From: an uncultured Anaerolinea sp.
GTDB taxonomy: Bacteria > Chloroflexota > Anaerolineae > JAAEKA01
Reading direction: 5' to 3'
DNA length: 64,000 nucleotides
Assembly: GCA_964626845.1 (NCBI GenBank)
Contig: CAZVGR010000014.1
Coordinates: 12,570 to 76,569 of the forward strand
A program made the position numbers and the translations under genes. Below the pieces are notes generated by a model, which saw only the letters and a list, made by a program, of their open reading frames with translations, was not told the DNA's origin and did not search any database. Positions 2,427 to 60,439 of this stretch are shown here, piece by piece (the first letter of the stretch is position 1; every line of letters starts with the position of its first letter).

Positions 2427-3815
2427 ATGCACGTGCAACCTATCCACATTGACCCCGCCGTTCTCCAGGCCGACCCCGAACGACGCCAACGTATCCTGCC
2501 GGTGCTTGAGGCGGCGTTGCACGCCGTCGCGCCCGGGCCCGCCGTTCGCCGCGCGCTGCAGCGCACAGGCAGCCGGCTGGCCGTCGGCGCCGCTGTCCAT
2601 GACTTGAGCCAGTTCGAGCACATCTATCTGCTGGGCATCGGCAAAGCGGCTGTGGCTATGGGCCTGGCAGCGGCGGACACGCTGGGCGAATGGCTGACAG
2701 CCGGCGCGCTGCTGACCAAACACGGCCACGCGGCCGGCGCTGAGGCGCTGCCAGCCAGCGTCGCCGTCTTGGAGGCAGGCCATCCCGTGCCCGACGCGGC
2801 CGGCGTCCAGGCAGCCCAAGGCATCGCCATGTTAATGCAGCAGACCACAGCGCATGACCTGGTGCTGTGCCTGGTCTCTGGCGGCGGCTCGGCCCTGCTG
2901 ACCCTGCCGGCCCGCGGGCTGAATCTGAGCGACCTGCAAGCCACCACCGAGGCGCTGCTGCACTGCGGCGCTGCTATCGACGAGATCAACACGCTGCGCA
3001 AGCACCTGGAACAGCTCAAAGGGGGGCAACTGGCGCGGCTGGCCAGTCCCGCCGCGCTGGAGAGTCTGGTGCTTTCTGACGTGGTCGGCAGCCCGCTCGA
3101 CGTGATTGCCTCTGGCCCGACGATGCCCGACCACTCCACCTGGAACGAGGCGTGGCAGATCGTGCAGCGCTATGCTCTGGAGACAACACTGCCAGACGCT
3201 GTGGTGCAGCGCCTGCGCGCTGGGCTGAGCGGCGATCTGCCCGACACACCCAAGCCAGGCGATCCGGCCTTCGCTCGCAGCCAGACCATCGTCGTGGCCG
3301 ACAATGCCCTGGCTGTGCAGGCTGCTCAGGCCGCGGCCCGCCAGCAGGGCTTCAACCCGCTGACGCTGACAACTTTCATCGAGGGCGAGGCGCGCGAGGT
3401 GGCCAGGATGGCCGTGGCTTTGGGCCGCGAGGTGGTCGCGCATGGCCAGCCTGTTGCACCGCCGGCCTGTCTCCTGTTGGGCGGCGAAACCACTGTTACC
3501 GTGCGCGGCCCAGGCCGCGGTGGGCGCAATCAGGAGCTGGCGCTGGCGGCTGCGCTGGAGCTGGCGCGCGTGCCGGAAGGAGAACGCATGGTCCTCGCCG
3601 CTCTGGCTACTGACGGCGGCGATGGTCCAACCGATGCGGCCGGCGGGCTGGCAGACGCCAGCGCTGTCGCGCGCGGCCATGCCCTGGGCCTGGACGCAGC
3701 CGAGTTCCTGGCCCGCAACGACGCCTACCCTTTTCTGCAGAGCGTTGGCGACCTGCTGCATACCGGTCCCACTCAGACCAACGTTAACGACCTGATCGCC
3801 GTCTTTGTGTTTTGA
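2427..3815 (+). CDS. Glycerate kinase (MOFRL/DUF4147 family)
   Basis: 462 aa. LCLVSGGGSALL and GGETTVTVRG..GRGGRNQE motifs typical of the MOFRL glycerate 2-kinase family. Confidence 0.8.
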   Translation: MHVQPIHIDPAVLQADPERRQRILPVLEAALHAVAPGPAVRRALQRTGSRLAVGAAVHDLSQFEHIYLLGIGKAAVAMGLAAADTLGEWLTAGALLTKHGHAAGAEALPASVAVLEAGHPVPDAAGVQAAQGIAMLMQQTTAHDLVLCLVSGGGSALLTLPARGLNLSDLQATTEALLHCGAAIDEINTLRKHLEQLKGGQLARLASPAALESLVLSDVVGSPLDVIASGPTMPDHSTWNEAWQIVQRYALETTLPDAVVQRLRAGLSGDLPDTPKPGDPAFARSQTIVVADNALAVQAAQAAARQQGFNPLTLTTFIEGEAREVARMAVALGREVVAHGQPVAPPACLLLGGETTVTVRGPGRGGRNQELALAAALELARVPEGERMVLAALATDGGDGPTDAAGGLADASAVARGHALGLDAAEFLARNDAYPFLQSVGDLLHTGPTQTNVNDLIAVFVF

Positions 3816-7110: not shown

Positions 7111-7216
7111 GGGGAGTTGCAAGTTGCAGGTGGCAAGTTGCAGGTGGCAAGTTGCAGGTGGCAAGTTGCAGGTTGCAGGTGGCAAGTTGCAAGTTGCAGG
7201 TGGCAAGTTGCAGGTA
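7111..7216. repeat. Tandem ~14-bp (two heptamer) repeat (GCAAGTTGCAGGTG)n
   Basis: About 7.5 direct units visible in sequence. Confidence 0.9.
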
Positions 7217-7242
7217 GATGCATAAACAGCACAGACAAACGC

Positions 7243-7382
7243 CCTTGTCTACTTGCCTACTTGCCTACTTGCCTACTTGCCTACTTGTCTACTTGTCTAC
7301 TTGCCTACTTGCCTACTTGTCTACTTGCCTACTTGCCTACTTGCCTACTTGCCTACTTGCCTACTTGCCTACTTGCCTACTG
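7243..7382. repeat. Tandem octamer repeat (CTACTTGC/CTACTTGT) x17; reverse complement of the GGCAAGTAG family
   Basis: Direct inspection. Partially complementary to the 7111-7216 array. Confidence 0.9.
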
Positions 7383-7417: not shown

Positions 7418-7446
7418 TTGACAAATCATCTATCGTCCATTATAAT
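7418..7446 (+). promoter_or_regulatory. Consensus sigma-70 promoter TTGACA-17bp-TATAAT upstream of the LacI-family gene
   Basis: 'ttgaca' 7418-7423 and 'tataat' 7441-7446 with exact 17-bp spacing. Confidence 0.55.
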
Positions 7447-12034: not shown

Positions 12035-13309
12035 ATGACTGAACACCCAGAGCCTCAGTCCTCCTTCGGCCGCAGGCTAGTCGACAATCTGCAAGAGGCA
12101 TCCTCGGTCTCCTACCAGCCCATGGTGCGGCAAGACGAGGAAGCCGCGCTGGCGCCGATGGGCGCAACGACCCAGGGCGCCGAGGCATTCTACGTAGCGC
12201 CCAACTGGAAACTGGTCTGGTGGCGCTTCAAAAAGCATCGCCTGGCCATGATCAGCGGCGTGGTCATGATCTTTATCACGATCATTGCGCTGGTCCCCGA
12301 CTTCTTCGCCACCCAGGACCCCAACGCCACCGCCGCCCTGGAGTCGTTCATCCCGGTACAGCGGGTGCATTTCTTCGATGAGCGCCGGCTCAGCCCCTTT
12401 GTCTTCGGCGCAGTCGGTCAGCGCAACCCCAAGTCGCTGCGGGTCGAATGGACGATCGACGAAGAGGTCAAGATACCGGTACAATTCTTCACGCGCGGCT
12501 ATCCCTACAAGATATTGGGCGTGATCTCCACCGACATCCATTTGATTGGCGTCGCGCCCACCGAAGAGCAGGCAGCAATCCGCCAGGCCGCGGCCAGCGG
12601 CGAGCGCATCAGCCAGGGCATCCATCTGCTGGGCACCGACCGCCTGGGACGCGACCAGTGGTCGCGGCTGATGTTCGGCACGCGCGTCTCGCTGTCCATC
12701 GGCCTGTTTGCGGTGGCTGTCAGCACGGTGCTGGGCATCTTTCTGGGCGGCATCTCCGGCTATTTCGGCGGCACGATCGATATGATCGTACAGCGCACCA
12801 TCGAGATCCTGCAGTCGCTGCCGGCCATTCCGATCTGGCTGGCCCTGACGGCCGCGCTGCCCCGCACCTGGTCAGTGGAGCAGACCTACTTCGCTATCAC
12901 TATCATCCTGGCGCTGCTGGGCTGGACGACGCTGGCGCGCGAGATTCGCGGGCGCTTTCTGACGCTACGCGAGGAAGACTTCATCGTGGCAGCCAAACTG
13001 TCGGGCTGCAGCCAGCAGCGCGTCATCTTCCGCCACATGGCGCCCACCATGTCCAGCCACATCATCGCCGCCGTCACCCTGGCCATCCCGGTTATGATCA
13101 TCAACGAGACCTTTCTCAGCTTCCTGGGCCTGGGCCTGCGGCCGCCGGCCATCAGTTGGGGCGTGCTGCTGCAAGAGGCGCAGAACCTGCAATCTATCGC
13201 CCTGGCTCCGTGGCTCTTGTTGCCCGGCCTGGTGGTCATCATCACCGTGCTGGCCCTCAACATCTTGGGCGATGGCCTGCGCGACGCGGCCGACCCGTAT
13301 ACGAGCTGA
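12035..13309 (+). CDS. ABC transporter permease (DppC/OppC-like) with N-terminal extension
   Basis: 424 aa. OppC_N-like extension then permease domain. Confidence 0.85.
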   Translation: MTEHPEPQSSFGRRLVDNLQEASSVSYQPMVRQDEEAALAPMGATTQGAEAFYVAPNWKLVWWRFKKHRLAMISGVVMIFITIIALVPDFFATQDPNATAALESFIPVQRVHFFDERRLSPFVFGAVGQRNPKSLRVEWTIDEEVKIPVQFFTRGYPYKILGVISTDIHLIGVAPTEEQAAIRQAAASGERISQGIHLLGTDRLGRDQWSRLMFGTRVSLSIGLFAVAVSTVLGIFLGGISGYFGGTIDMIVQRTIEILQSLPAIPIWLALTAALPRTWSVEQTYFAITIILALLGWTTLAREIRGRFLTLREEDFIVAAKLSGCSQQRVIFRHMAPTMSSHIIAAVTLAIPVMIINETFLSFLGLGLRPPAISWGVLLQEAQNLQSIALAPWLLLPGLVVIITVLALNILGDGLRDAADPYTS

Positions 13310-13377
13310 TGATTGGGTGACTGGGTGATTGACTGCCACCCTTGCCACCTGCCACCTGCATCCTGCAACCTGCAACC
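13310..13377. repeat. Heptamer tandem repeats (TGGGTGA, then TGCCACC/TGCAACC)
   Basis: Direct inspection. Occupies the junction between the permease and ATPase genes. Confidence 0.8.
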
Positions 13378-14412
13378 ATGAACCAACCTTTGCTTTCGGT
13401 GCGCAACCTAAAGACCTACTTCTTCCTGGACGAAGGCATCGTCAAGGCCGTAGATGGCCTGAGTTTCGACGTCTACCCCGGCCAGGTGGTGGGCATCGTC
13501 GGCGAGAGCGGCTGCGGCAAGAGCGTGGCCATCAAGTCGGTACTGCGCATCGTGCCGCCACCCGGCCGCACGGCCCAAGGGCAGATCCTCTACCGGCCAC
13601 AGAAGCAGGCCAGCTATGAAGGCGTCGGGCCTGAAGGCGCCATCGACCTGGTGCAGTTGAACGAGCGCGGCAAGCAGATGCGGGCGCTGCGCGGGGCCGA
13701 GATCGCCCTCATCCCGCAGGAGCCGATGGCCTCCTTCAGCCCGGTACACACCATCGGCAACCAGCTCATCGAGGCCATCCGCCTGCACCAGCCGGTCGGC
13801 AAGAAGGAGGCCTGGCAGATCGCCGTGGAACGCATGCGCGAGGTGGGGGTGCCCAGCCCCGAACAGCGCATGAACGCCTACTCCTGGGAGCTGAGCGGCG
13901 GGCTGCGCCAGCGGGCCATGATCGCCATGGCGCTGTCGTGCAACCCCAGCCTGCTGATCGCCGACGAGCCGACCACAGCCATCGACGTGACCACCCAGGC
14001 CCAGGTGCTGACCTTGCTCAAAGGCCTACAGGCCGAGCGCCAGATGGCTATCATCTTCATCACCCACGACCTGGGCGTGATCGCGCAAATGGCCGATTGG
14101 GTGGTAGTGATGTACCTGGGGCGGGTGATGGAGCAGGGGCCGGCCGACGACATCTTCCACAGCCCGCAGCATCCCTACACCCGGGCGCTGCTGGAGTCGA
14201 TTCCCACCGTCCATTCAGCCGCGCGCACCTTCCTGCCCACCATTGCGGGCTCGATCCCGCATCCCTTCAACCGGCCGCCTGGCTGCCCTTACTACCCGCG
14301 CTGCGCCGAGTTCATGCCCGGCGTCTGCGACCAGCGCACCCCGGCCGCGCAGCCCATCGGCGAACGCCAATTGGTGAGCTGCTTCCTGCACCACGATGTG
14401 GCGGATGAGTGA
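13378..14412 (+). CDS. ABC transporter ATP-binding protein (DppD/OppD-like)
   Basis: Walker A GESGCGKS, signature LSGGLRQR, Walker B LLIADEPTTAIDV. Start ATG 13378 (MNQPLL). Confidence 0.85.
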   Translation: MNQPLLSVRNLKTYFFLDEGIVKAVDGLSFDVYPGQVVGIVGESGCGKSVAIKSVLRIVPPPGRTAQGQILYRPQKQASYEGVGPEGAIDLVQLNERGKQMRALRGAEIALIPQEPMASFSPVHTIGNQLIEAIRLHQPVGKKEAWQIAVERMREVGVPSPEQRMNAYSWELSGGLRQRAMIAMALSCNPSLLIADEPTTAIDVTTQAQVLTLLKGLQAERQMAIIFITHDLGVIAQMADWVVVMYLGRVMEQGPADDIFHSPQHPYTRALLESIPTVHSAARTFLPTIAGSIPHPFNRPPGCPYYPRCAEFMPGVCDQRTPAAQPIGERQLVSCFLHHDVADE

Positions 14413-14425
14413 GGCGTGAAACGTG

Positions 14426-15547
14426 ATGCGTGAAGAAGACCTGCCGCCCATGACTAACTCCCAGTTCCCTCCAGTTCCTCTGAGTTCCGCCGTTGCTGCC
14501 CAAAACGGCCGCAACCTGCTGCTGGAGGTCAACGATCTCAAGAAGTACTTCCCCATCAAGGAAGGCTTCGTCAAGAAGATCGTCGGCTTCGTGCGCGCCG
14601 TGGACCAGGTCAGCTTTCACATCTACGAGGGCGAAACGCTGGGGCTGGTGGGCGAGAGCGGCTGCGGCAAGACCACCACAGCTCGCTGCATCCTGCGCGC
14701 CATCGATCCCACCTCCGGCCAGATCCGCTTTCGCCTTGGCTCCGGCGAGATGGTCGATGTGGCGGCGCTGTCGGCTGGCCAGATGCGGCCGCTGCGCCGC
14801 GAGATGCAGATGATCTTTCAAGATCCCTACGCCTCGCTCAACCCGCGCATGACCCTGCTGGACATCGTGGGGGAGCCGCTACTGGTGGTAGATGGCATGA
14901 AAAGCCGGCAAGAGCGGCAGGCTCGGGTGGAGGAACTGCTCAAGCTGGTGGGGCTGCGGCCGGAGTACATGCAGCGCTATCCCCACGCCTTCAGCGGCGG
15001 CCAGCGCCAGCGCATCGTCATCGCCCGCGCCCTGGCTCTCAACCCGCGCTTCGTGGTGGCCGACGAGCCGGTCTCGGCCCTGGATGTGTCGGTGCAGGCC
15101 CAGGTGCTGAACCTGCTGCTCAAGCTGCAACAAGAGCTGCACCTGACCTACCTCTTCGTGGCCCACGACCTGAGCGTGGTCAAGCACATCTGCGACCGGG
15201 TGGCGGTGATGTACGTGGGCAAGATCGTGGAGACCGCGCCGACGCGCGAGCTGTTTTTCGCTCCCAAGCATCCCTACACGGCTGCGCTGATGTCGGCCGT
15301 GCCGGTGGCCAACCCGCGCATTCGCGCCCGCATGACCCCGCTGGAAGGGGACGTGCCCAGCCCGGCCAAGCCGCCATCAGGCTGCTATTTCCACCCCCGC
15401 TGCCGCTTCGCCGTCGATGTCTGCAAGAGCGACGCGCCGCCGCTGCACGAGTTCCAGCCGGGCCACTTCGTCGCCTGCCATCGAGCAAGCGAGCTGGAGC
15501 TGATCGGCATCGGCGATGCGCCAATCATCGGGGAGTTACAACCGTGA
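14426..15547 (+). CDS. ABC transporter ATP-binding protein (DppF/OppF-like)
   Basis: Walker [10 protein letters not shown], signature FSGGQRQR, Walker [13 protein letters not shown]. Confidence 0.85.
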
Positions 15548-16551: not shown

Positions 16552-16593
16552 CGAGCGATCATCGAATGCGGAGCTTATCTTCCATGTGAGGTC

Positions 16594-16710
16594 GCCGGGG
16601 GATAAATCCCACCGGCTATAGAACTGCGCCGGATCAATCCGGCTACATCTGCGCACACCTTAGCCCCGTTGACGGGGCGCTGCTGGATAGCCGGTGGGAT
16701 TCATCCCCCG
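16594..16710. mobile_element. MITE-like element with 27-bp terminal inverted repeats (CGCCGGGGGATAAATCCCACCGGCTAT / ATAGCCGGTGGGATTCATCCCCCGGCG) and internal hairpins
   Basis: Arms match at 26 of 27 positions. Core contains hairpins gccgga-tcaa-tccggc and ccccg-ttga-cgggg. Confidence 0.5.
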
Positions 16711-16830
16711 GCGGCTGCCGCTCACGCACAAGGTGCATGTCAGCCGCGATCTACACCAGTATGTACGGATCGCCAATCCACCGGTCAAAGCTAATACCAA
16801 CCGCCCAGTAGCTAAACGTATCCGCGCACC

Positions 16831-17259
16831 ATGAACTACGTCTTTCCCACCACCAACCCACGCCGCTACCGCTTCCCCACCCACGCCAACGACCTGGTGA
16901 TGGACCGCGCCGAGGCGGCCACCAGCGAGGTCTTCATCGTCGAGATGGCGCCGGGCGAGGCGCCGCCGCGCCACCACCACGACGACATGGAGCAGATCTT
17001 CTACGTGCTGGCCGGCCAGGGCCGGCTGGAGATCGGCGACCCCACCGAGAGCGCGACGATCCATCCCGGCGACGTGGTGCGTATCCCCGTCTCCACCTGG
17101 CACACCGTCCACTGCCTGGGCGACGAGCCCTTACGCTACCTGGCCGTGGACTGCTTCATCGCTGGCCGTCCCGCCGCCGAGCCCACCTGGGACGACCACG
17201 TGCGCGTGGTGTGCCAGGAGCAAGGCTGGGACTACGATACCATCAGAAATGGTCAATGA
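16831..17259 (+). CDS. Cupin domain protein
   Basis: 142 aa. Cupin motifs (PPRHHHDDMEQIFYVLAG ... PVSTWHTV). Confidence 0.7.
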   Translation: MNYVFPTTNPRRYRFPTHANDLVMDRAEAATSEVFIVEMAPGEAPPRHHHDDMEQIFYVLAGQGRLEIGDPTESATIHPGDVVRIPVSTWHTVHCLGDEPLRYLAVDCFIAGRPAAEPTWDDHVRVVCQEQGWDYDTIRNGQ

Positions 17260-17345
17260 TCAATGGTCACTTGCCAATTGTCAATACTCAGAGCTTGCCA
17301 GCCATTGACAATTGACCATTGGACATTGAGATTTGGACATTAATC

Positions 17346-18530
17346 ATGCGCATCACCCCCCGCTTCCCCGACCTCCTCGCGATTTACCGCGCCGAGCTGC
17401 TGGAGCGCGTCGTGCCCTTCTGGCTGCGCCACGCCATCGACCGCCAGCACGGCGGCCTGTTGACCTGCATCGCCGACGACGGGGCCGTGCTGAGCACCGA
17501 CAAGTATCTCTGGTCGCAACTGCGCGCCGTCTGGACCTTCTCCGCGCTCTACAACCGCATCGAGCCGCGGCCGGAGTGGCTGGACGTCGCCCGCCACGTC
17601 TACGACTTTGCCAGCCGCTATGGCCGCGACGACGAGGGGCGCTGGGCCTTCGCCGTGGATCAGGACGGCCGCGTGCTGCAAGGCGCGGACAGCATTTTTG
17701 CCGACGGCTTTGCCATCTACGGCCTGACCGAGCTGGCCCGCGCCACCGGCGACCAGGCTGTCATCGACCTGGCGCTGGCGACCTACGCCAACGTGCAGCG
17801 GCGGCTGGCTGCGCCTGGATCCTACGGCATCGGCCCCTTCACCCTGCCTCCTGACGCCAAGGCCCACGCCGTCTCCATGATCTTTGCCCTGGTCTTCGAC
17901 GAGCTGGGCCAGTTGCTGGGCGACCAGGCCATCATCGCGGCCGGCCGCGCCCATGCCGATGAGGTGATGGACGCCTTCCTACGGCCCGACCGGCGCGTGC
18001 TCTACGAGTATGTCCACCTGGATAACACACTGATCGACACCCCGCAGGGCCGCGCAATCGTGCCCGGCCACGCCATCGAGTCCATGTGGTTCATGATTGA
18101 GATCTACCAGCGGGCCGGCCAGCCTGAGCGCGTCTGCCAGGCCGTGGAGGCGATCCGCTGGCACCTGGAGCTGGGCTGGGACGACGAGTACGGCGGCATC
18201 GTCCACGCCCGCGACGCGGCCGGCGGGCAGCCCTGGTGGCGCTTCGCCGACGCCAAGCTGTGGTGGCCGCAGACCGAGGCGCTGACCGCCCTGCTACTGG
18301 CCTGGGAGCACAGCCGCGAGCCGTGGTGCCTGGACTGGTTCGCCCGCGTCCACGACTATGCTTTCCACCACTACCCGGTGCCGCAGCATGGCGAATGGAC
18401 CCAGCGCCTGGACCGCCAGGGCCGCCCCTTCAACGCGACCGTGGCCCTGCCCGTCAAGGACCCGTTCCACCTGCCGCGCGCGCTGATCTACTGTGTTGGC
18501 GCGTTGCAGCGGCTGGCGGGGCAGGCGTAA
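17346..18530 (+). CDS. N-acylglucosamine 2-epimerase (AGE) family protein
   Basis: Start ATG 17346 (MRITPRF). (alpha/alpha)6-barrel AGE-family motifs. Confidence 0.8.
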   Translation: MRITPRFPDLLAIYRAELLERVVPFWLRHAIDRQHGGLLTCIADDGAVLSTDKYLWSQLRAVWTFSALYNRIEPRPEWLDVARHVYDFASRYGRDDEGRWAFAVDQDGRVLQGADSIFADGFAIYGLTELARATGDQAVIDLALATYANVQRRLAAPGSYGIGPFTLPPDAKAHAVSMIFALVFDELGQLLGDQAIIAAGRAHADEVMDAFLRPDRRVLYEYVHLDNTLIDTPQGRAIVPGHAIESMWFMIEIYQRAGQPERVCQAVEAIRWHLELGWDDEYGGIVHARDAAGGQPWWRFADAKLWWPQTEALTALLLAWEHSREPWCLDWFARVHDYAFHHYPVPQHGEWTQRLDRQGRPFNATVALPVKDPFHLPRALIYCVGALQRLAGQA

Positions 18531-18640
18531 TGCGTAATGCGTAACCCGTAACCCGGAAAGGCTCGCCGACGAGATCTCTGGTTACGGATTACGAGTTACG
18601 TGTTACGAGTTACGAGTTACGAGTTACGTGTTACAAGCAA
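18529..18640. repeat. Inverted heptamer arrays (TAATGCG/TAACCCG ... GTTACGA/GTTACGT) flanking hairpin core CGTAACCCGG...GGTTACG
   Basis: Direct inspection. Confidence 0.85.
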
Positions 18641-18663
18641 ACACCCGCCATCGAAAGGCGCCT

Positions 18664-20067
18664 GTGAGCTATCCCAACCTGCTCTTCCTCATCACCGACC
18701 AGCAACAGGCCGCGACCGTGGCGCCGGGCTCGCCTTGCCTGACGTCGAACCTGGACGCGCTGGCGGCGCGCGGGACGCAGTTCAATCGCTGTTATGCGCC
18801 CAACCCGATCTGCTCGCCCAGCCGCGCCAGCCTGTTCACCGGCCTGCTGCCCCACAGCCACGGCATGGTCGATGTGACCCACGCGGTGCCGCCCTACCGG
18901 GCCGAGCTGCAAGCAGGGCTGTCCTTCTGGCCGCAGGCTTTGCAGGCTGCCGGCTATCGCACAGGCTACTTCGGCAAGTGGCATGTGGAACGCACAAACC
19001 GGCTGGAGCGGTTCGGCTTCGACCAGTACGACGTGGCCCGCTACCACCAACTGCATGGGCTGGTGGAACGGCCCGAGCCCATGCAGCCCAGGGGCGTCGT
19101 GCGCCAACCGGGCTACCGCGACTTTCTGCTCTACGGCGTGGTGGACGAGCCGGTCGAGGCGACGCCGGAATGGGCGCTCTACCAGGACGGCGTGCGTTTC
19201 CTGCGCGACGCCGCCAGCCGGCCGGAACAACCGTGGGCGCTGTTCCTGAGCAGCGAGGCGCCGCACGATCCCTACGTGGCGCCGCGCAGCTACTACGAGC
19301 GCTACGATCCGGCCGACCTGCCGCGGCCGACCAGCTTCGGCGATGACCTTGCGGGCCGGCCCGCCCTCTACCGCCGCATACAGCGCGTCTGGCAGGAGCT
19401 GGACTGGGCGCAGGCCGCCGAGGCCACGGCCTGTTACTATGCGCTGTGCTCGCTGCTGGACGATCTGATCGGCGGCCTGCTGGCGGAGCTGGAGGCGCTG
19501 GGACTGGCCGAGAACACGATAGTGGTCTTCACGTCCGACCACGGCGACTACCTGGGCGCGCACGGACTTTTTCTGAAGGGAATACCGGCCTTCGAGGAGG
19601 CCTACCGCGTGCCGCTGATCCTGGCCGGGCGGGGCGTACCGGCCGGCAAGCAGGTGGAGGAGGTCGCCAGCCTGCTGGACCTGGCGCCGACGCTCCTGGA
19701 CCTGCTGCTGCGCCAGCCGTGGGGCGGCCATGGCCGGTCGCTGGCGCCGCTGCTGGCCGGCCAGACGGCTGATTGGCCCGACGAGGCCTACGCCGAGATG
19801 CAGGGCCAGCGCTTCGCCTACCAGCAGCGCATCGTGTGGCGTGAAAACTGGAAGTACGTCTTCAACACCTTCGACGAGGACGAGCTCTACGACCTGGCCG
19901 CGGACCCGCATGAGCTGCGCAACCTGGCCGTTGACCCCGGTCATCGAGACGCGCTGGAGGCCATGGCCCGGCGCATGTGGCGCTGGGTGGCCGACACCGG
20001 CGACGAGAACATGCTCAAGGCGCAGTACGGCATGTTTCGCTTTGCGCCGGTTGGGCCGGAACTGTGA
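18664..20067 (+). CDS. Sulfatase (formylglycine-dependent arylsulfatase family)
   Basis: Signature CSPSRASLFTG (C-x-P-x-R). Start probably GTG 18664 after AAAGG; ORF from 18628. Confidence 0.85.
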   Translation: MSYPNLLFLITDQQQAATVAPGSPCLTSNLDALAARGTQFNRCYAPNPICSPSRASLFTGLLPHSHGMVDVTHAVPPYRAELQAGLSFWPQALQAAGYRTGYFGKWHVERTNRLERFGFDQYDVARYHQLHGLVERPEPMQPRGVVRQPGYRDFLLYGVVDEPVEATPEWALYQDGVRFLRDAASRPEQPWALFLSSEAPHDPYVAPRSYYERYDPADLPRPTSFGDDLAGRPALYRRIQRVWQELDWAQAAEATACYYALCSLLDDLIGGLLAELEALGLAENTIVVFTSDHGDYLGAHGLFLKGIPAFEEAYRVPLILAGRGVPAGKQVEEVASLLDLAPTLLDLLLRQPWGGHGRSLAPLLAGQTADWPDEAYAEMQGQRFAYQQRIVWRENWKYVFNTFDEDELYDLAADPHELRNLAVDPGHRDALEAMARRMWRWVADTGDENMLKAQYGMFRFAPVGPEL

Positions 20068-20077
20068 GGCGTGAAAC

Positions 20078-21250
20078 GTGAAACGTGATGAAGCGGCGCC
20101 GCTGGCGCTGGTCAACGGGCGCATCGTGCTGCCCGACCGGGTGGTGGATGGCCGGGCGCTGTTGGTTGCGGATAGCAAAATTGTGGCTGTGGTCGCGCTG
20201 GACGAGCTGGCCGCGGACACAGCCCGCCTGGACGTGGGCGGCCGGCTCGTCACACCCGGCCTGATCGACATCCACACCCACGGCGCGCTGGGCCACACCT
20301 TCAACGAGCCCACGGCTGAGGCATTCGCGACGATCACGGCCGAGAACCTGCGCCGCGGGGTCACGTCGCTGCTGGCCACCACCGCCACCGCGCCCATCGA
20401 CGACCTGGTGGCCTGCCTGGAGTTCGCCCGCGGCTGGATGGCTGCGCCCCAGGCCGGCAGCCAGGTGCTGGGCGTCCACCTGGAAGGCCCGTACTTCCAT
20501 CCCGCCAAGGCCGGCGCGCAGGACCCGGCTGCGCTGCGCACCCCCGACGACGGCTCGGTGGATCACCTGCTGGCCCACGCGGACGTGGTGCGCATGATGA
20601 GCTACGCGCCGGAGCTGCCGGGCGCGCTGGCGCTGACCGAGCGGCTGGCGAAGCTGGGCATCGTCCCGGCCGCCGGCCACAGCAATGCCCGCGACACGGA
20701 CTTGGAGGCCGCCATGCAAGCCGGTCTGCGCCACATCATCCACGTCTGGAGCGCGCAATCGACCACCGTGTACGAGGGCGCATGGCGCAAACCGGGCCTG
20801 CTGGAGGCGTCGTTGGCCTTCGACGGCCTGACGGTGGAGATGATCGCCGACCACAAGCACCTGCCGCGCACCCTGATGCGGCTGGCCTACAAGGCCATTG
20901 GCCCCGACCGGCTGTGCATCGTCTCCGACGCCACCAGCGGCGCGGGCCTGCCTGAGGGCAGCCGCTTCCGCATGGGCGCGCTGGAGTACGTGGTCGAGGA
21001 CGGCGTGGGCATGATGCTGGACCGCTCCTCCTTTGCCGGCAGCAGCACGCTGCTGAACCAGATGCTGCCCGTGCTCGTCGACGTGGTGGGCATCCCGCTG
21101 GCCGAGGCCGTGCGCATAGCCACCCTCAATCCGGCGCGCGTCATCGGCGCGGATAATCGCAAGGGCAGCCTGGAGCCGGGCAAGGATGCCGACATCGCCA
21201 TCTTCGACGCTGACTTCACCGCCTGGCACGTGCTGGTCGGCGGACGGTAA
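20078..21250 (+). CDS. nagA: N-acetylglucosamine-6-phosphate deacetylase (amidohydrolase)
   Basis: GTG start. Metal-binding HTHG, NagA-like EGPYF and AAGHSNA motifs. Confidence 0.8.
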   Translation: MKRDEAAPLALVNGRIVLPDRVVDGRALLVADSKIVAVVALDELAADTARLDVGGRLVTPGLIDIHTHGALGHTFNEPTAEAFATITAENLRRGVTSLLATTATAPIDDLVACLEFARGWMAAPQAGSQVLGVHLEGPYFHPAKAGAQDPAALRTPDDGSVDHLLAHADVVRMMSYAPELPGALALTERLAKLGIVPAAGHSNARDTDLEAAMQAGLRHIIHVWSAQSTTVYEGAWRKPGLLEASLAFDGLTVEMIADHKHLPRTLMRLAYKAIGPDRLCIVSDATSGAGLPEGSRFRMGALEYVVEDGVGMMLDRSSFAGSSTLLNQMLPVLVDVVGIPLAEAVRIATLNPARVIGADNRKGSLEPGKDADIAIFDADFTAWHVLVGGR

Positions 21251-21310
21251 TCGGTGATCAGTAACCGGTCACCGGTCACGGATTACCGATCACCAAATCT
21301 GGAGCCAACC

Positions 21311-22087
21311 ATGTCATCCCCCATCCACCAAATCACCATCGACCAACTTCCCGTGCGCGTCTATGCCAGCAACGAGGCCATGGGCCAGGCTGCGGCAGTG
21401 GAGGCTGCGGCGGTAATCCAGCGGGCCATCGCCCAGCGCGGCGCAGCCAACGTCATCCTGGCCACGGGCAACTCGCAGCTCACCTTCTTGCGCAGCCTAC
21501 GCGAAAACCAGGATATCGAATGGCGGCATGTGCGCGTTTTCCACATGGACGAGTACGTGGGCCTCGACCCGCAGCACCCTGCCAGCTTTCCGCTCTTCCT
21601 GCGCCGCCATTTCCTGGACTACGTGGACGTGGGCGCGTTCTTCCCCGTGGCCGCGCCGGTCGAGGACACCGAGGCCGCCTGCCGGGCCTACGAGTCGTTG
21701 TTGCGCCATCACCCGGCCGACCTGTGCGCCTGCGGCATCGGCGAGAACGGCCACCTGGCCTTCAACGATCCGCCCTACGCCGACTTCGACGATCCCGTTT
21801 GGGTCAAGGTGGTGCAGTTGGACGAGCGATCGCGGCGCCAGCAGGTAGGCGAGGCCCATTTTACCACCCTGGACGAGGTACCCACCCACGCCGTCACCCT
21901 GACCATCCCCGCGCTGCTGGCCGCCGGGACCGTGCTGTGTATCGTCCCAGAAGCCCGCAAAGCCGAGGCCGTCCAGGCCAGCCTGCGCGGCCCGATTACC
22001 GAGGACTGCCCCGCGTCGATCCTGCGCACGCAGGCCCACGTCCGGCTGTATCTGGATCCGGAGTCGGGTAAATTGGTAAATTGGTAG
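21311..22087 (+). CDS. nagB: Glucosamine-6-phosphate deaminase (NagB/6-phosphogluconolactonase family)
   Basis: Start ATG 21311 (MSSPIHQ). Motifs ILATGNSQ and FHMDEYVGL. Confidence 0.8.
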   Translation: MSSPIHQITIDQLPVRVYASNEAMGQAAAVEAAAVIQRAIAQRGAANVILATGNSQLTFLRSLRENQDIEWRHVRVFHMDEYVGLDPQHPASFPLFLRRHFLDYVDVGAFFPVAAPVEDTEAACRAYESLLRHHPADLCACGIGENGHLAFNDPPYADFDDPVWVKVVQLDERSRRQQVGEAHFTTLDEVPTHAVTLTIPALLAAGTVLCIVPEARKAEAVQASLRGPITEDCPASILRTQAHVRLYLDPESGKLVNW

Positions 22088-22178
22088 ATTGGTAGATTGG
22101 TCATGACTCGCCGCGCGACAACATCACCAATCTACCAATCTACCAATCACCAATCTACCAATCTACCATTCACCAACC
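22075..22178. repeat. Inverted arrays of (TTGGTAAA / TTGGTAGA) and complementary (CAATCTAC / CAATCAC) hepta/octamer repeats
   Basis: Direct inspection. Forms a long imperfect palindrome between nagB and the downstream URO-D gene. Confidence 0.85.
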
Positions 22179-23327: not shown

Positions 23328-24325
23328 AAGTTCTCTTTATCGGCGGCACCGGCGTGATCAGCTCGGCCTGCACAGAGTTGGCCGTGCAGCAGCACATCGA
23401 CCTGTATCTGCTCAACCGCGGGCAGAGCACGGCGCGGCCGGCGCCCATCGGCGCAACGGTGCTGCACGGCGACATCCGCGACCCGGCCAGCGTCGAAGCC
23501 GCTCTGCGCGGCCACAGCTTCGACGTGGTGGTGGACTGGATCGCCTTCACGCCCCAGCATGTGCAGACTGACATCGACCTGTTCCGGGGCCGCGTGGGCC
23601 AGGTCATCTTCATCAGCTCGGCCTCGGCCTATCAGACCCCGCCGGCCAGCCTGCCCGTCACCGAGTCGACGCTGCTGGACAACCCTTTCTGGGAGTACTC
23701 GCGCCAGAAGATCGCCTGCGAGGAGCTGCTGGTGCGGGCTTACCGCGACGAAAAGTTTCCCATGACCATCGTGCGCCCCTCGCACACCTACGACGCCACC
23801 AAGATACCGCTGTTGGGCGGCTACACCAGCCTCAAGCGCATGAAAGAGGGCCGGCCGGTGCTGGTCTACGGCGACGGCACATCCTTGTGGACGCTGACCC
23901 ATACGCGCGACTTCGCCACCGGCTTCGTCCCGCTGCTGGGCAACGCCCGCGCCATCGGCGAGGCGGTGCATATCACCTCCGACGAATGGCTGACCTGGAA
24001 CCAGATCTACCAGACCATGGCCGCGGCGCTGGGCGTGGAGGCCAGGCTGGTCCACGTGCCCAGCGAGCTGATCAACGCTTACGACCCGCACCACGGCGAG
24101 GGCCTGCTGGGCGACAAAAGCCACAGCATGATTTTCGACAACAGCAAGATCAAGCGTCTGGCCCCCGGCTTTGCCTGCACCACCCCCTTCGCCTGGGGCG
24201 CCCGCGAGATCGTCGCCTGGCACGAGGCCGACCCGGCCCGGCAGGGGATCGACCCGTACGTGGAGACGTTGATCGAGCGGGTGCTGGCGGCGTATGAGAA
24301 GTGCTGGCCGGGCAGTAATGCGTAA
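23324..24325 (+). CDS. NAD-dependent epimerase/dehydratase (SDR family)
   Basis: ATGA overlap with the upstream stop. Rossmann motif LFIGGTGVISS. Confidence 0.8.
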   Translation: MKVLFIGGTGVISSACTELAVQQHIDLYLLNRGQSTARPAPIGATVLHGDIRDPASVEAALRGHSFDVVVDWIAFTPQHVQTDIDLFRGRVGQVIFISSASAYQTPPASLPVTESTLLDNPFWEYSRQKIACEELLVRAYRDEKFPMTIVRPSHTYDATKIPLLGGYTSLKRMKEGRPVLVYGDGTSLWTLTHTRDFATGFVPLLGNARAIGEAVHITSDEWLTWNQIYQTMAAALGVEARLVHVPSELINAYDPHHGEGLLGDKSHSMIFDNSKIKRLAPGFACTTPFAWGAREIVAWHEADPARQGIDPYVETLIERVLAAYEKCWPGSNA

Positions 24326-24412
24326 CTCGTAACTCGTAACCCGGAATTCGGAGACTCGTGCAGGCCGACTCCGGGTTACGCATTACGAGTTACGGGTTAC
24401 GGGCGCATCCAA
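24307..24412. repeat. Heptamer arrays (TAACTCG/TAACCCG ... TTACGAG/TTACGGG) around hairpin CGTAACCCGGAA...TCCGGGTTACG
   Basis: Same family as 18529-18640 and 63195-63268. Confidence 0.85.
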
Positions 24413-27022: not shown

Positions 27023-27039
27023 AGCTTTCCCTCACCCCA

Positions 27040-27125
27040 GCCCTCTCCCAGAGGGAGAGGGAGTCCGGAATCCGGAATCCGGAGTCCGGTCCCCTCTCCC
27101 TCTGGGAGAGGGTTAGGGTGAGGGC
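27040..27125. terminator. Long near-perfect palindrome (~33-bp arms) with a (TCCGGAA)n heptamer loop; candidate terminator after uxaC
   Basis: ccctcaccccagccctctcccagagggagaggg ... ccctctccctctgggagagggttagggtgaggg. Confidence 0.5.
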
Positions 27126-29279: not shown

Positions 29280-30659
29280 ATGGCCGCTGACACGCTGTTG
29301 ATCCACAACGGCGCCGTCTGCACCTTTGGCGATGCCAACCAGGTGATCGACGACGGCGCGGTGCTGGTCGAGAATGGGCAGATTGCTGCCGTTGGCAGGG
29401 GCGACGAGCTGAAGCGCGCCTATCCGGACGCGCGGCGCGAGGACGCGGGCGGCAAAGTGCTGATGCCCGGCAACATCTGCTCGCACACCCACTTCTACGG
29501 CGCGTTCGCGCGCGGCCTGTACATCCCCGGCCCGGCGCCCAAGGATTTCCCCGAGATCCTGCGCCGGCTGTGGTGGACGCTGGACATGGCGCTGGACGAC
29601 GACGGCGTGCTGTACAGCGCGTTAGTCTGCCTGGTGGACGCGATCCGCAACGGCACGACCACCCTGTTCGACCACCATGCCAGCCCCAACGAGATCGACG
29701 GCAGCCTGGACATCATCGCCGGCGCGGTGGAGGCGGCCGGGCTGCGGGCGGTGTTGTGCTACGAGGTAACCGACCGCAACGGGCCAGAGGGCACGGCGGC
29801 CGGGATTGCTGAGAACGTGCGCTTTATCAAGGGGCAGCGGGCTCGATCAGGAGACCGGCCCGAGCAGGTGATGCTGTCAGGGCTGTTTGGGCTGCACGCA
29901 TCGCTGAGCCTGAGCGACGAGACCCTGGCGCAGTGCGTGGCCGAGGCCGAAGCGTTGGGCGATGTCGGCTTTCATGTCCACGCGGCCGAGGGGCCGGCCG
30001 ATCAGGAGGACAGCCTGGCCAGATACGGTCTGCGCACCATCGACCGCCTGCGCGCCCGGGGCGTGCTCAACCCGCGCAGCATCGTGGCCCACGTGACGGC
30101 CATTGACGGCTGGGAGATGGCCGCGCTGCGCAAGAGCGGCGCCTGGGTGACGCATCAGCCGAGGAGCAACATGAACAACGCGGTGGGGGTGGCCGACGTG
30201 CCGGCCATGCTGCGCGGCGGCATGCCGGTGCTGCTGGGCAACGATGGCTTCTCCAACGACATGTTCACGGAGATGAAGACCGCCTACTTATTACACAAGG
30301 CCTGGCGCAACGACCCGCGCGCCATGCCCGGCAACCAGGTGATCGACATGGCCTACCGCCACAACGCCCGCCTGGCGGCGCAACACTTCCCGCTGCCGCT
30401 GGGCGAGATCAGCGTGGGCGCGGCGGCCGACCTGATCCTGCTGGACTACTACCCCACCACCCCCATGACGGCCGACAACCTGCCCTGGCACATCCTCTTC
30501 GGCGTCAGCGGCAGCCACGTGACGCATACCATGGTCGCCGGCAAATGGCTGATGAAAGAGCGCGCGCTGTTGACCCTGGACGAGGCTGCGATCACCGCGC
30601 AGAGCCGCACAGTGGCCAAGGCAACCTGGGAGCGATTCTGGGAGTTGAGTGGGAAGTAG
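29280..30659 (+). CDS. Amidohydrolase family protein (chlorohydrolase/SsnA/aminodeaminase-like)
   Basis: Start ATG 29280 after GGAGG. Metal-binding HTH and later His motifs. Confidence 0.7.
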   Translation: MAADTLLIHNGAVCTFGDANQVIDDGAVLVENGQIAAVGRGDELKRAYPDARREDAGGKVLMPGNICSHTHFYGAFARGLYIPGPAPKDFPEILRRLWWTLDMALDDDGVLYSALVCLVDAIRNGTTTLFDHHASPNEIDGSLDIIAGAVEAAGLRAVLCYEVTDRNGPEGTAAGIAENVRFIKGQRARSGDRPEQVMLSGLFGLHASLSLSDETLAQCVAEAEALGDVGFHVHAAEGPADQEDSLARYGLRTIDRLRARGVLNPRSIVAHVTAIDGWEMAALRKSGAWVTHQPRSNMNNAVGVADVPAMLRGGMPVLLGNDGFSNDMFTEMKTAYLLHKAWRNDPRAMPGNQVIDMAYRHNARLAAQHFPLPLGEISVGAAADLILLDYYPTTPMTADNLPWHILFGVSGSHVTHTMVAGKWLMKERALLTLDEAAITAQSRTVAKATWERFWELSGK

Positions 30660-30720
30660 GGAAGTAGGCAAGTGGCAAGTGGCAAGTAGGCAAGTGGCAA
30701 GTAGGCAAGTGGCGAGTGGT
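30650..30720. repeat. Tandem GGCAAGT(A/G) hepta/octamer repeat x9
   Basis: Same unit family as the reverse-complement array at 7243-7382. Confidence 0.85.
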
Positions 30721-31770: not shown

Positions 31771-32823
31771 ATGCCAACCCCCCGCCCCGGTCCGGTGGTT
31801 TTGTTTGGTTCTGGCGAGACCTCGGCCAACGGCCAAAAAGCCTTCGATTGGGTCTTTCGCAGGCAGGACCAGCCTTTGCGAGTGGCGATTCTGGAGACGC
31901 CGGCCGGCTTCGAGTTGAACTCGCAGCAGGTAGCACAGCGCATCGCCGACTTCCTGCGCCAGCGCTTGCAGAACTACGCGCCGCAGGTGACGTTGGTTCC
32001 GGCCCGCCGCCGCAACACGCCATGGAGCCCGGAAGAGCCAGATGTGGTTGCGCCGCTGCTGCACAGCAACGTGATCTTCCTCGGTCCTGGCAGCCCCAGC
32101 TATGCCGTTCGACAACTGCACGATAGCCTGGCCTGGCACATGCTGCGCAGCCGGCAGCGCTTGGGCGCAGCCGCGGCGCTGGCCAGCGCTGCTACTGTGG
32201 CCGCTGGCGCCTACGCGCTGCCGGTCTACGAGATCTATAAAGTCGGCGAGGACCTGCACTGGAAGCCGGGGCTGGACCTGTTTGCCGACTTCGGTCTGAA
32301 GCTGGCAATCGTGCCGCACTGGAACAACACCGACGGCGGCGCAGAACTGGATACCAGCCGCTGTTTCATGGGGCGGGCGCGCTTTGAGCCGCTGCTGGCT
32401 ATGCTGCCCCCCGACGTGGTCGTTCTGGGCGTGGACGAGCAGACGGCGCTGGCCATGGACCTGGTAAATGGAACCGGCCATGTGTTGGGCGCGGGCAGTG
32501 TAACAGTGCTGGCTGCAGGCGCGAGCCAGGTTTTCAGCCGCGGCGAGAGCCTGCCTTTGGCCGCGCTAGGGCCTTTTTGCCTGCCGGAGGCAGGGTACGG
32601 CATTCCTGCGCCGGTCTGGCAGCAGGCGATGGAAGCAGCGGCAACGAGCCCGCAGGCAGTAGAGCCGCCGCCAGAAATCCTTGAGCTGGCCAGCCGACGC
32701 CAGCAGGCGCGCGAGCGGCGTGATTGGGCTACGGCCGACGCGCTGCGCAGCGAGATCGAAGCGCTAGGCTGGCTCGTACAGGACACGGCGGAGGGGCCGC
32801 GAGTGTCCGGGAAAAATGGTTAA
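31771..32823 (+). CDS. Hypothetical two-domain protein: peptidase S51/cyanophycinase-like (class I glutamine-amidotransferase-like) N-domain + CysRS C-terminal-like motif
   Basis: C-terminal 'RRQQARERRDWATADALRSEIEALGWLVQDT' resembles the cysteinyl-tRNA synthetase C-terminal domain. N-domain assignment weak. Confidence 0.4.
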   Translation: MPTPRPGPVVLFGSGETSANGQKAFDWVFRRQDQPLRVAILETPAGFELNSQQVAQRIADFLRQRLQNYAPQVTLVPARRRNTPWSPEEPDVVAPLLHSNVIFLGPGSPSYAVRQLHDSLAWHMLRSRQRLGAAAALASAATVAAGAYALPVYEIYKVGEDLHWKPGLDLFADFGLKLAIVPHWNNTDGGAELDTSRCFMGRARFEPLLAMLPPDVVVLGVDEQTALAMDLVNGTGHVLGAGSVTVLAAGASQVFSRGESLPLAALGPFCLPEAGYGIPAPVWQQAMEAAATSPQAVEPPPEILELASRRQQARERRDWATADALRSEIEALGWLVQDTAEGPRVSGKNG

Positions 32824-32868
32824 TGGGTGAATTGGTGAATGGTGAATTGTTAACAAGGAGTGTGTGGC

Positions 32869-53902: not shown

Positions 53903-54207
53903 GTAACTGCTCAGCCGGCCGGTCAGAAACCGGGTTTTTCTCGTTGGGCAATGATTTCTGAGTTTGCAAACGCATTGCTCGGGGCTATGATAGCCGCTTC
54001 CGCAGCAAAAACCCGGTTTCTCTAAGGAGCTGTTTAAAAAGCCCGGCAGCGTCGGAATCAGAGGTTGAAACCATCTGGCTGAAAGTACGAAGCGGCCTCA
54101 GCCGCTGGATTCCAGGCCCTGAGGGGCCTTCGTGCTGTCAGCCGGTGGGTTTCCAACCACCGATCCGGGGCTTTTCAAACAGCCTCTAAGCCCAGCCTGA
54201 GCAGTAA
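53903..54207. mobile_element. Left copy of a ~140-bp MITE (TIR TAACTGCTCAG.../...CTGAGCAGTAA), interrupted by a nested MITE
   Basis: Reverse-complement match (1 mismatch) to 60237-60376, split by the 54026-54183 insertion. Confidence 0.7.
54026..54183. mobile_element. Nested 158-bp MITE with ~16-bp TIRs (GCTGTTTAAAAAGCCC / GGGGCTTTTCAAACAGC) and 7-bp target-site duplication CTCTAAG
   Basis: CTCTAAG at 54019-54025 and 54184-54190. The right MITE copy at 60237-60376 has a single uninterrupted CTCTAAG. Confidence 0.7.
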
Positions 54208-60376: not shown

Positions 60377-60439
60377 CCGGCGTTTGTTGTAATGGGGCTG
60401 ACGCCGGCGCTGCTATGGGGCGCCGATTCCAGCCTGAGC

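Follow-up and report, generated by a model that had tools for sequence, protein, structure and literature searches.

The DNA analysed here, referred to below as the window, is a 64-kb stretch of contig CAZVGR010000014.1 from an uncultured Anaerolinea sp., and three of its intergenic spacers carry a recurrent hairpin element built from inverted tandem arrays of a 7-nucleotide (nt) unit. Genes were called by open reading frame (ORF) selection based on GC content at third codon positions (GC3), together with Pfam. The best homologues of the window proteins belong to Anaerolineae and Chloroflexota metagenome-assembled genomes (MAGs), and the window is syntenic with the assembly USDE_maxbin.019 at about 77–80% nucleotide identity. 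All three copies of the element are located in short gaps between co-directional genes, in agreement with the preliminary description of this DNA. Copy 1 follows a gene of the AGE family (N-acetylglucosamine 2-epimerase-like) and precedes a sulfatase gene, whereas copy 2 connects an NAD-dependent epimerase gene with a URO-D-like gene; both spacers are part of a long plus-strand cluster for the utilisation of amino sugars and sulfated glycans (about 7.4–34 kb). On the minus strand, copy 3 separates a gene resembling S-adenosylmethionine (SAM) hydroxide adenosyltransferase from a downstream gene of the 5-enolpyruvylshikimate-3-phosphate (EPSP) synthase family.

The unit of the 5′ arm is the heptamer CGTAAYN and that of the 3′ arm its complement, NRTTACG. 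The element is organised around an inner palindrome, CCGGAA and TTCCGG separated by 10–25 nt, from which tandem heptamer arrays run outward on both sides (Table 1). Period-7 arrays were detected at the three loci by TRF as well as by pattern searches. The 12-mer CGTAACCCGGAA has exactly three exact matches in the 64 kb, at positions 18547, 24335, and 63217, and in each copy it closes the CGTAAYN array on the inner side, with a complementary NRTTACG array opposite after an interval of 22–32 nt. With up to two mismatches allowed, the window contains 20 matches to this 12-mer, compared to 2.8 ± 1.6 in dinucleotide-preserving shuffles. The heptamer dimer GTTACGNGTTACG has 21 matches, compared to an expected 1.5 ± 1.3. 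The repeat is real and its statistics are solid; reading of the sequence, pattern counts, and folding all bear out the hairpin with heptamer arrays reported earlier at these three sites. The copies are found where they had been placed, except that copy 3 extends about 12 nt past 63268, the end originally given. A complementary sequence downstream of the core, described as common to all copies, is present in kind, but TCCGGGTTACG is exact in copy 2 only, its place being taken by TCTGGTTACG in copy 1 and by TCCGATTACG in copy 3. Copy 3 is more degenerate than the other two, and the loops of the three copies are dissimilar to one another.

Table 1. Positions of the CGTAAYN hairpin copies and of other stop-bearing or inverted arrays in the window
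Feature	Positions	Strand	Sequence and remarks
Copy 1, 5′ arm	18526–18553	+	CGTAATG CGTAATG CGTAACC CGTAACC; TAA occurs in each of the three frames
Copy 1, inner core and loop	18554–18579	+	CGGAA-AGGCTCGCCGACGAGATCTCT; small internal hairpin CTCG..CGAG
Copy 1, 3′ arm	18580–18635	+	Eight NRTTACG units, three adjacent ones identical (AGTTACG)
Copy 2, 5′ arm	24314–24341	+	AGTAATG CGTAACT CGTAACT CGTAACC
Copy 2, core and loop (32 nt)	24342–24373	+	CGGAATTCGGAGACTCGTGCAGGCCGACTCCG; recognisably conserved in the orthologous element of L110
Copy 2, 3′ arm	24374–24401	+	GGTTACG CATTACG AGTTACG GGTTACG
Copy 3, left arm on plus strand (3′ arm for minus-strand genes)	63196–63223	−	AGTGATG CGTAACG AGTACTG CGTAACC
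Copy 3, core and loop	63224–63245	−	CGGAATCGCGCATGGCGTCTCC
Copy 3, right arm on plus strand (5′ arm in gene sense)	63246–63280	−	GATTACG TGTCACT CGTTACG TATTACA CGTCACC
7- or 8-nt array	13307–13377	+	TGATTGGG units, then TGCCACC/TGCAACC; from spacer survey
CGTGA-type sister array	14410–14433	+	TGA GGCGTGA AACGTGA TGCGTGA; upstream stop and first in-frame GTG (14423) of next ORF
AATGGTC hairpin	17247–17345	+	AATGGTC/AATGATC arm against CCATTGA/CAATTGA arm; contains stop TGA 17257–17259
CGTGA-type sister array	20065–20088	+	TGA GGCGTGA AACGTGA AACGTGA; sulfatase stop and GTG (20078) of NagA-like ORF
Heptamer hairpin, sister unit	21246–21294	+	GGTAATC GGTGATC AGTAACC / GGTCACC GGTCACG GATTACC GATCACC; dG −27.9 kcal/mol; stop TAA 21248–21250 of NagA-like gene
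Octamer hairpin	22067–22176	+	(GGTAAATT/GGTAGATT)4 - loop - (ACCAATCT)n; dG −57 kcal/mol, z −10.6
Arrays without inverted partner	30648–30719 and 32815–32849	+	From spacer survey

The arrays also supply the stop codons of the upstream genes, a property overlooked in the preliminary description. In all three copies the stop and the last one or two codons of the preceding gene fall within the first heptamers: the 5′ arm of copy 1 encodes the final GCG codon of the AGE-family epimerase gene together with its TAA (18528–18530), that of copy 2 provides the NAD-epimerase gene with its two terminal codons and its TAA (24323–24325), and the right arm of copy 3 contains the minus-strand TAA (63269–63271) that terminates the SAM hydroxide adenosyltransferase-like gene. 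Because every unit carries TAA and the period is 7 nt, stops occur in all three frames; since the element is palindromic and both strands read alike, it immediately halts any ORF that runs into it from either direction, and can therefore sit flush against a coding end. Stop-bearing heptamer-array arms lie flush against gene 3′ ends inside operons. The genes downstream of the copies start within 16–56 nt. The sulfatase start, GTG 18664, is located 28 nt past the 3′ arm of copy 1, and ATG 24418 follows the 3′ arm of copy 2 with no Shine–Dalgarno motif in between. No promoter or terminator consensus was present at the element spacers in a scan of 13–31 kb.

The predicted folding energy (dG) is −45.4 kcal/mol for copy 1 (z-score −3.3), −57.2 kcal/mol for copy 2 (z-score −6.2), and −41.9 kcal/mol for copy 3 (z-score −5.6), and the predicted stems comprise about 30–40 bp. 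A T-run, corresponding to a U-tract in RNA, follows none of the three copies, so that an intrinsic (Rho-independent) terminator, consisting of a short GC-rich stem-loop with a U-tract directly behind it, is not supported, and neither is the attenuator role of that type suggested at first. Rfam 15 at the gathering threshold gave 0 matches in the whole window, and ARAGORN found no tRNA or tmRNA in it. Readings of the repeat as tRNA-linked or as an assembly artefact were rejected on sequence, as was a CRISPR (clustered regularly interspaced short palindromic repeats) array, in which direct repeats of about 25–40 nt alternate with unique spacers of comparable size, the units here being 7 nt long, contiguous, and arranged in inverted arrays. 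A conserved oriented loop motif, GCGCG/CGCGATT, was dropped, as it points both ways with respect to the gene that the element abuts.

Contrary to the possibility, raised in the preliminary description, that no further copies might exist, a scan of one genome per species with the pattern TAMYNCGTAACCCGGAA, which leaves the right-hand inner motif unconstrained, found at least 104 loci. The full hairpin architecture is present, at non-homologous sites, in at least about ten Chloroflexota (Anaerolineae/Caldilineales) MAG assemblies, and 8-kb samples from about ten such assemblies contain dozens of elements. Carriers among the matches listed are DTUCFX11, USDE_maxbin.019, MFD10570, PPR_0257, CH3, clx_CAG2, SSC4, MFD00032, H71_756, and P_ANAE, labelled as Chloroflexota, Anaerolineae, Anaerolineales, Caldilineales, or Chloroflexia; SSC4 is a complete chromosome. 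The sole carrier outside Chloroflexota among these matches is a 1.5-kb contig binned as Chthoniobacterales, originating from the same study as DTUCFX11, and the listed matches in other phyla are single chance occurrences inside unrelated sequence. Across carriers, the right-hand inner motif is mostly TTCCG|GGTTACG, the innermost heptamers are spaced by 22–45 nt, and the units are almost all of four variants (CGTAACC, CGTAACT, CGTAACA, and CGTAATG). The arms consist of 2–8 heptamers and are unequal both between arms and between copies (for example, 4 vs 8 units), with adjacent units identical in about 20% of cases, which is what slippage predicts. Most elements in relatives abut the stop of a coding-like ORF, and the ORFs near them are ordinary metabolic genes.

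Among the loci of relatives and other assemblies compared with the window, which are denoted by L-numbers, L030, L040, and L058, from three different MAGs, have arms and loop (CGGAATCYCGSACACGACTYSC...) in common at 77–84% identity, and L021, L044, and L060, all from DTUCFX11, share an element of about 140 nt, yet in neither set is there flank homology by blastn, or by tblastx within 1.5 kb. Five short-read (Logan) contigs that encode the exact window epimerase all end at 24341–24344, inside the repeat, as would be expected if the k-mer at this junction were multi-copy in the source genome. In L069, an element and a 62-nt satellite built from it follow the orthologue of a 1430-aa gene, at a position between convergent genes that is taken in the window by an ordinary GC-rich hairpin. 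Viral contigs, when scanned, yielded 10 matches, nine by chance and one in a GC-rich contig with the left array only, so phages are not evident vectors of the element. As far as sampled, and among the matches listed, the element constitutes a dispersed palindromic family restricted to Chloroflexota, as the preliminary description had proposed for a dispersed structured repeat. The left half of the element, together with about 35–45 nt, is also tandemly repeated in relatives as a 62–74-nt satellite of 3–4 or more copies (L069 1200–1420, L034 2823–3060, and L045 6800–6950).

Comparison of orthologous spacers reveals both persistence and replacement of the arrays. In the window, L110 (88% amino-acid identity), and L128 (90%), an element lies 3′ of the epimerase gene of copy 2, and its array provides the terminal codons (N-A, N-T, or N-P) of that gene as well as its TAA; the gene downstream differs among the three. 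The array is absent after the epimerase in L111 (85%) and in about 35 more distant homologues, which terminate in ..AWPK and a stop. The spacer of copy 1 is occupied in L191 (88%) by a GGTGATC/GATCACC hairpin, built of the same unit as the hairpin at 21246–21294 of the window, and in L192 and L194 (81–82%) by TACTCG/CGAGTA inverted arrays (dG −45.5 kcal/mol), which correspond to the heptamer TAACTCG/CGAGTTA with one A missing in both arms. In the spacer between the cupin and AGE genes, the AATGGTC hairpin of the window is 94% identical in L190, with unchanged copy number, and is there no less conserved than the genes on either side; in L191 the same spacer contains a GGTTAAT/ATTAACC hairpin (dG −63 kcal/mol). 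By these comparisons, the arrays were gained within the clade, persist through 10–20% divergence, change their unit in a concerted manner in both arms, and sit at indel or rearrangement boundaries. The change from a 7-mer to a 6-mer in both arms of L192 and L194 requires either transfer of information between the arms, for which quasi-palindrome template switching is a known mechanism, or selection for pairing, and the two are not separable from the present data.

The CGTAAYN hairpin is one of several inverted 6–8-mer array hairpins in the window spacers, the others having likewise been overlooked before. According to TRF and the spacer survey, about half of the plus-strand spacers open with a stop-bearing 7- or 8-nt array at the upstream stop, often followed by a complementary array, and many unit families coexist in one genome. 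The octamer hairpin fills its spacer completely, including the stop of the NagB-like gene and extending to ATG 22179. Its GGTAGATT/ACCAATCT family also occurs at L027 8–86, L036 594–666, L039 7736–7832, and L096 6048–6138, in three other Chloroflexota MAGs (MFD10570, DTUCFX11, and P_ANAE), and is therefore a second dispersed family. Period-7/8 arrays have a density of 0.28/kb in the window and of 0.66–0.70/kb in the close relatives L190 and L191, against a background of 0.065/kb in 555 kb of metagenome loci picked independently of repeats. In all DNA sampled, inverted 6–8-mer array pairs carry stops in more frames in the 5′ arm in 36 cases vs 8 for the opposite, although these pairs are not independent and, counted by unit family, split about 6 to 3.

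Several observations accompany these arrays. The junction TGA GGCGTGA AACGTGA, with a GTG located 10 nt after the stop, is common to the spacers at 14410 and 20065, and both CGTGA (GTG and TGA) and CGTAATG (TAA and ATG) are overlapping stop/start motifs. Several of the starts at 13378, 21310, 22179, 16831, and 25610 have a shared context, AACCATGAAC or CCAACCATG, and no Shine–Dalgarno motif; clear GGAG or AAGGAG motifs are found at other genes of this cluster. The densest period-7/8 arrays (0.6–1.8/kb) were seen in L159 and L160, two unrelated metagenome contigs of 37% GC that were reached via an epimerase homologue and probably come from another heptamer-rich lineage. In the divergent intergenic region at 7119–7381 and 7418–7446, (GCAAGTT/GCAGGTG)n lies opposite (CTTGCCTA)17; the two arrays pair imperfectly because a 7-mer opposes an 8-mer, and their location indicates that arrays are not confined to operon spacers. 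A perfect sigma-70-like TTGACA-17-TATAAT is found just downstream.

The closest known system is the heptamer hairpin of the short tandemly repeated repetitive (STRR) elements of filamentous cyanobacteria, with a dispersal resembling that of REPINs, the hairpin-forming doublets of repetitive extragenic palindromic (REP) sequences. Known STRR units are CCCCAGT, TTGGTCA, and CAACAGT. The likeness to STRRs noted in the preliminary description is apt, as both are tandem 7-nt units in non-coding DNA at several dispersed loci, STRRs often lying between co-transcribed genes, and as the inverted arrays fold here, between co-directional genes, in the manner of the hairpins between hupS and hupL. The inverted arrangement, on the other hand, is not the departure from STRRs that it was taken for, since STRRs that form a hairpin between hupS and hupL are said to be no rare occurrence among filamentous cyanobacteria, and roles in transcript stability or translational coupling have been proposed for STRR hairpins between co-transcribed genes (PMC2670836). 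The present element differs in its unit, CGTAAYN, which is not a canonical STRR unit, in its host, the homologues and syntenic relatives being Chloroflexota/Anaerolineae MAGs rather than heterocystous cyanobacteria, and in the conserved inner palindrome CCGGAA..TTCCGG; moreover, the whole hairpin, including the loop, is dispersed across species, and the arrays systematically supply the upstream stop.

Two other heptamer families share the relation to stop codons. The TAACTGA repeats, found in marine Beggiatoaceae and in some Cyanobacteria and Bacteroidetes, provide stops in all three frames in forward orientation, overlap upstream stops, and lie shortly upstream of starts that often have no Shine–Dalgarno motif; their 170 sets include a single indirect repeat, no RNA structure is predicted for them, and horizontal spread is suspected (MacGregor 2015, PMC4679880). 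All-frame stops, overlap with upstream stops, downstream starts lacking a Shine–Dalgarno motif, and filamentous hosts are common to both, whereas the TAACTGA repeats are direct and without structure and the arrays described here are inverted and form long stems. In Xanthomonas and Nostoc, the GGGGA(C/T)T repeats are located no more than 50 bp from stop codons or overlap them, preferentially between co-directional ORFs, and most are transcribed (PMC4692102); their location at stop codons between aligned ORFs is the same, but those units are G-rich and quadruplex-forming, unlike the Watson–Crick hairpin of two inverted arrays seen here. Heptamers are, in the summary of Mrazek 2007 given in PMC4679880, the commonest class of long simple-sequence repeats in bacteria. 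The genome of Chloroflexus aurantiacus contains a species-specific 14-nt satellite, Fam_1_14_23, which is described as genome-scattered and interpreted as transposed (PMC6749651); it resembles the present repeat in being a short unit (14 = 2 × 7 nt) in a Chloroflexi genome, but it belongs to the class Chloroflexia, whereas the host here is Anaerolineae-like.

The preliminary comparison with REPs and with bacterial interspersed mosaic elements (BIMEs) stands in part. REPs of Proteobacteria have a fixed length of about 20–35 nt and are tied to a gene for a REP-associated tyrosine transposase (RAYT), and the inverted-repeat doublet, or REPIN, forms a long hairpin in single-stranded DNA or mRNA (PMC3116915). 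The present element is likewise an extragenic, dispersed, multi-copy palindrome that forms a hairpin as an inverted doublet, lies in operon spacers, and shows clustering and nesting, but its membership in this class is unsupported: the arms are a variable number of 7-nt units instead of a fixed-length conserved sequence. BIMEs are mosaics in which REP types alternate with defined linker motifs and which are bound by IHF, gyrase, or Pol I; no alternation of Y- and Z-type units was seen in the three window copies. No transposase or RAYT domain was found in the 20 window proteins scanned, and no transposase family is among the Pfam families matched by at least two of the 143 ORFs located within 4.7 kb of elements in relatives, families matched by one ORF being outside that listing. 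Miniature inverted-repeat transposable elements (MITEs) have terminal inverted repeats, a target-site duplication, and a conserved internal sequence. The present element has inverted arms; its internal part varies among the window copies but is conserved within subfamilies elsewhere, and no target-site duplication is definable, the ends of the arms being repetitive and adjoining stop codons. A full-text search of the literature library found no paper with these repeat sequences and nothing specific on heptamer repeats in Chloroflexi. As a kind of element, a hairpin of heptamer arrays in the operon spacers of filamentous bacteria was known before; what is new is the unit family and the distinctive, dispersed core-plus-arrays architecture, in a phylum where these have not been described.

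We lean, by a modest balance of probability, towards an interpretation of the element as a transcribed intercistronic hairpin that serves mRNA 3′-end protection, processing, or translational insulation and is shaped by slippage and by template switching between its arms. Whole units, loop included, would be copied to new sites, where the arms would lengthen and shorten through replication slippage, while their complementarity would be maintained by inter-arm template switching (quasi-palindrome correction), by selection for pairing, or by both, so that the unit sequence could turn over as the hairpin persists. Transcribed as part of a polycistronic mRNA, the element would fold into a stem of 30–40 bp without a U-tract, and might then act as a barrier to 3′ exonucleases or as an RNase III-type processing site, setting the relative stability of operon segments, or might insulate or couple the translation of adjacent cistrons. 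These roles match those proposed for cyanobacterial STRR hairpins and for REPs of the Escherichia coli mal operon, among them a role as mRNA stabiliser in malE-malF. The mRNA-stability role raised in the preliminary description is accordingly among those considered and appears plausible; from the present analysis, a stabiliser or processing site, or else a translational insulator or coupler, is the best-supported putative function, and a terminator is not.

A number of results weigh against this interpretation. The sense strand has no advantage over the antisense in folding (14 vs 14 among 28 oriented elements, Wilcoxon P = 0.77), and the counts of G-U pairs are equal, and there is therefore no sign that RNA rather than DNA is the selected form; in copy 3, the sense strand even folds worse than the antisense (−35.4 vs −41.9 kcal/mol). 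Mirror complementarity at the variable unit positions is only weakly above the null (18/60 vs 12.6, P about 0.06; P about 0.01 when the unit order is shuffled within elements), so that pairing depends mainly on the constant part of the unit, and template switching between the arms could, by itself, maintain complementarity without any selection. The hairpin is, furthermore, dispensable in some lineages (L110, L190, L195, and L193). The right arm of copy 2 is lost in L110 exactly at the end of homology to the window, 24373. In L190 (92% identity; 90% at the nucleotide level), an 873-nt two-gene cassette exactly replaces 18519–18672, homology stopping at 18518 and resuming at 18673. The junction of copy 1 in L195 (76%) is 11 nt long and has no array, and in L193 (78%), which is without the sulfatase gene, the cupin-to-AGE spacer is reduced to 1 nt, again with no array.

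Much of this would be accounted for by the main rival, possible but on the whole doubtful, in which the element is a selfish or neutral REPIN- or MITE-like palindrome, moved in trans or by recombination, that has no host function, persists since its outward-facing stops are harmless beside genes, and owes its complementarity to template switching alone. The absence of strand bias in folding and the dispensability just described agree with it, as do the dispersal to non-homologous sites with common loops, the variable presence of elements among relatives, and their position at boundaries of cassette indels or rearrangements (24373 compared to L110, and 18518–18673 compared to L190). It is less easily reconciled with the lack of a transposase in the window proteins scanned or of a recurrent one among the 143 neighbouring ORFs, with the dissimilar loops of the three window copies, or with the retention of hairpins at the same two spacers through about 10–20% nucleotide divergence despite unit turnover; the AATGGTC hairpin, as noted above, is in L190 conserved at least as well as its flanking genes, with no change in copy number. 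That the arrays arose by local slippage only, independently at each spacer and with no copying between sites, is scarcely credible, being largely refuted by the shared loops at non-homologous sites and by the identical 12-mer junction and inner palindrome at three unrelated spacers and in at least about ten other MAG assemblies, although unequal arms, often identical adjacent units, and the prevalence of heptamers among long simple-sequence repeats in bacteria (as summarised in PMC4679880) would be consistent with it.

An intra-operon attenuator or terminator, in which the long hairpin would pause or release RNA polymerase between cistrons, is very unlikely: the hairpins are indeed very stable and start at gene 3′ ends, and the element of L069 takes the place of an ordinary GC-rich hairpin between convergent genes, but no copy is followed by a T-run, the terminator scan of 13–31 kb was empty at the elements, stems of 30–40 bp with loops of 14–26 nt do not resemble intrinsic terminators, and the closely spaced downstream genes have, by the same scan, no promoter of their own. 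It is quite unlikely, too, that the arrays are binding sites for a protein that, by recognising the heptamer in RNA or in DNA, would control translation or the structure of the chromosome. Strong conservation of the unit, in four main variants across at least about ten MAG assemblies, would favour such recognition, as would the several downstream starts without a Shine–Dalgarno motif, a comparable proposal, naming S1, Csp, or CsrA-like proteins, having been made for the TAACTGA repeats (PMC4679880). Orthologous spacers, however, swap to unrelated-looking units or to a 6-mer while the hairpin is kept, which points to structure rather than sequence recognition; in addition, many unit families occur within one genome, and the 7-nt period does not fit the DNA helical repeat.

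A further extension of the intercistronic-hairpin interpretation, itself unlikely, is that stop-bearing array hairpins constitute a component of intercistronic junctions in this Anaerolineae clade that replaces Shine–Dalgarno initiation. A ribosome stopping at the array-encoded stop in the outer stem would unzip the hairpin and re-initiate at a nearby start without a Shine–Dalgarno motif, and CGTAATG and CGTGA might be viewed as amplified motifs of stop/start coupling. If this were true, the same logic might underlie the cyanobacterial STRRs and the TAACTGA repeats of Beggiatoaceae. Knowledge of the STRR, TAACTGA, and GGGGAYT heptamers in filamentous cyanobacteria, in Beggiatoaceae, and in Xanthomonas goes back decades, and to our knowledge no function has been established for them. 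Their design, with stop-bearing units flush with gene ends, inverted arrays as long stems, and dispersal between sites, now recurs in uncultured filamentous Chloroflexota, which argues that operon spacers have repeatedly acquired it, as a solution or as a parasite, and that it is not a cyanobacterial oddity. The retention of the hairpin while the unit changes, including the change from a 7-mer to a 6-mer in both arms, offers a handle for separating structural function from mutational drive. In practical terms, the elements break short-read assemblies, mark boundaries of cassette indels or rearrangements in these MAGs, and define gene 3′ ends that annotation pipelines ought to anticipate.

Several other features of the window and its relatives may be mentioned. 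The cassette of L190, the closest relative, occupies positions 2881–3753 of that locus and encodes a 112-aa ORF and an HNH endonuclease, and the C terminus of the AGE gene is changed there. A very stable palindrome (dG −93 kcal/mol) at 27029–27124, CCCTCACCCC..CCCTCTCCCAGAGGGAGAGGG, has a loop with (TCCGGAA)3, its CCGGAA motif being common to the core of the CGTAAC hairpin; in relatives (L190 1017–1109 and L194 1146–1233) it is found at another spacer, between genes for a GFO oxidoreductase and a cupin. The 279-nt spacer at 16552–16830 contains a long imperfect palindrome, GCCGGGGGATAAATCCCACCGGCTAT ... ATAGCCGGTGGGATTCATCCCCCGGCG, and the orthologous spacer of L190 and L194 has the GGGAGAGGG element instead. 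A 124-nt inverted repeat, 99% complementary (53903–54026 and 60254–60377), flanks a minus-strand gene of 1920 aa (54411–60173) that includes an internal tandem repeat (483 bp × 5.8, 55724–58502), and L030 and L040 both contain related sequence over about 145 nt. At 51538–53843, on the minus strand, a gene for a C-5 cytosine DNA methylase (E = 2.7e-60) adjoins an ORF of 350 aa that weakly matches an ApaLI-like restriction endonuclease (E = 0.0024), the two forming a probable restriction-modification pair. The pair lies in a stretch at approximately 48–54 kb with a GC content of 57–61%, compared to about 65% elsewhere in the window.

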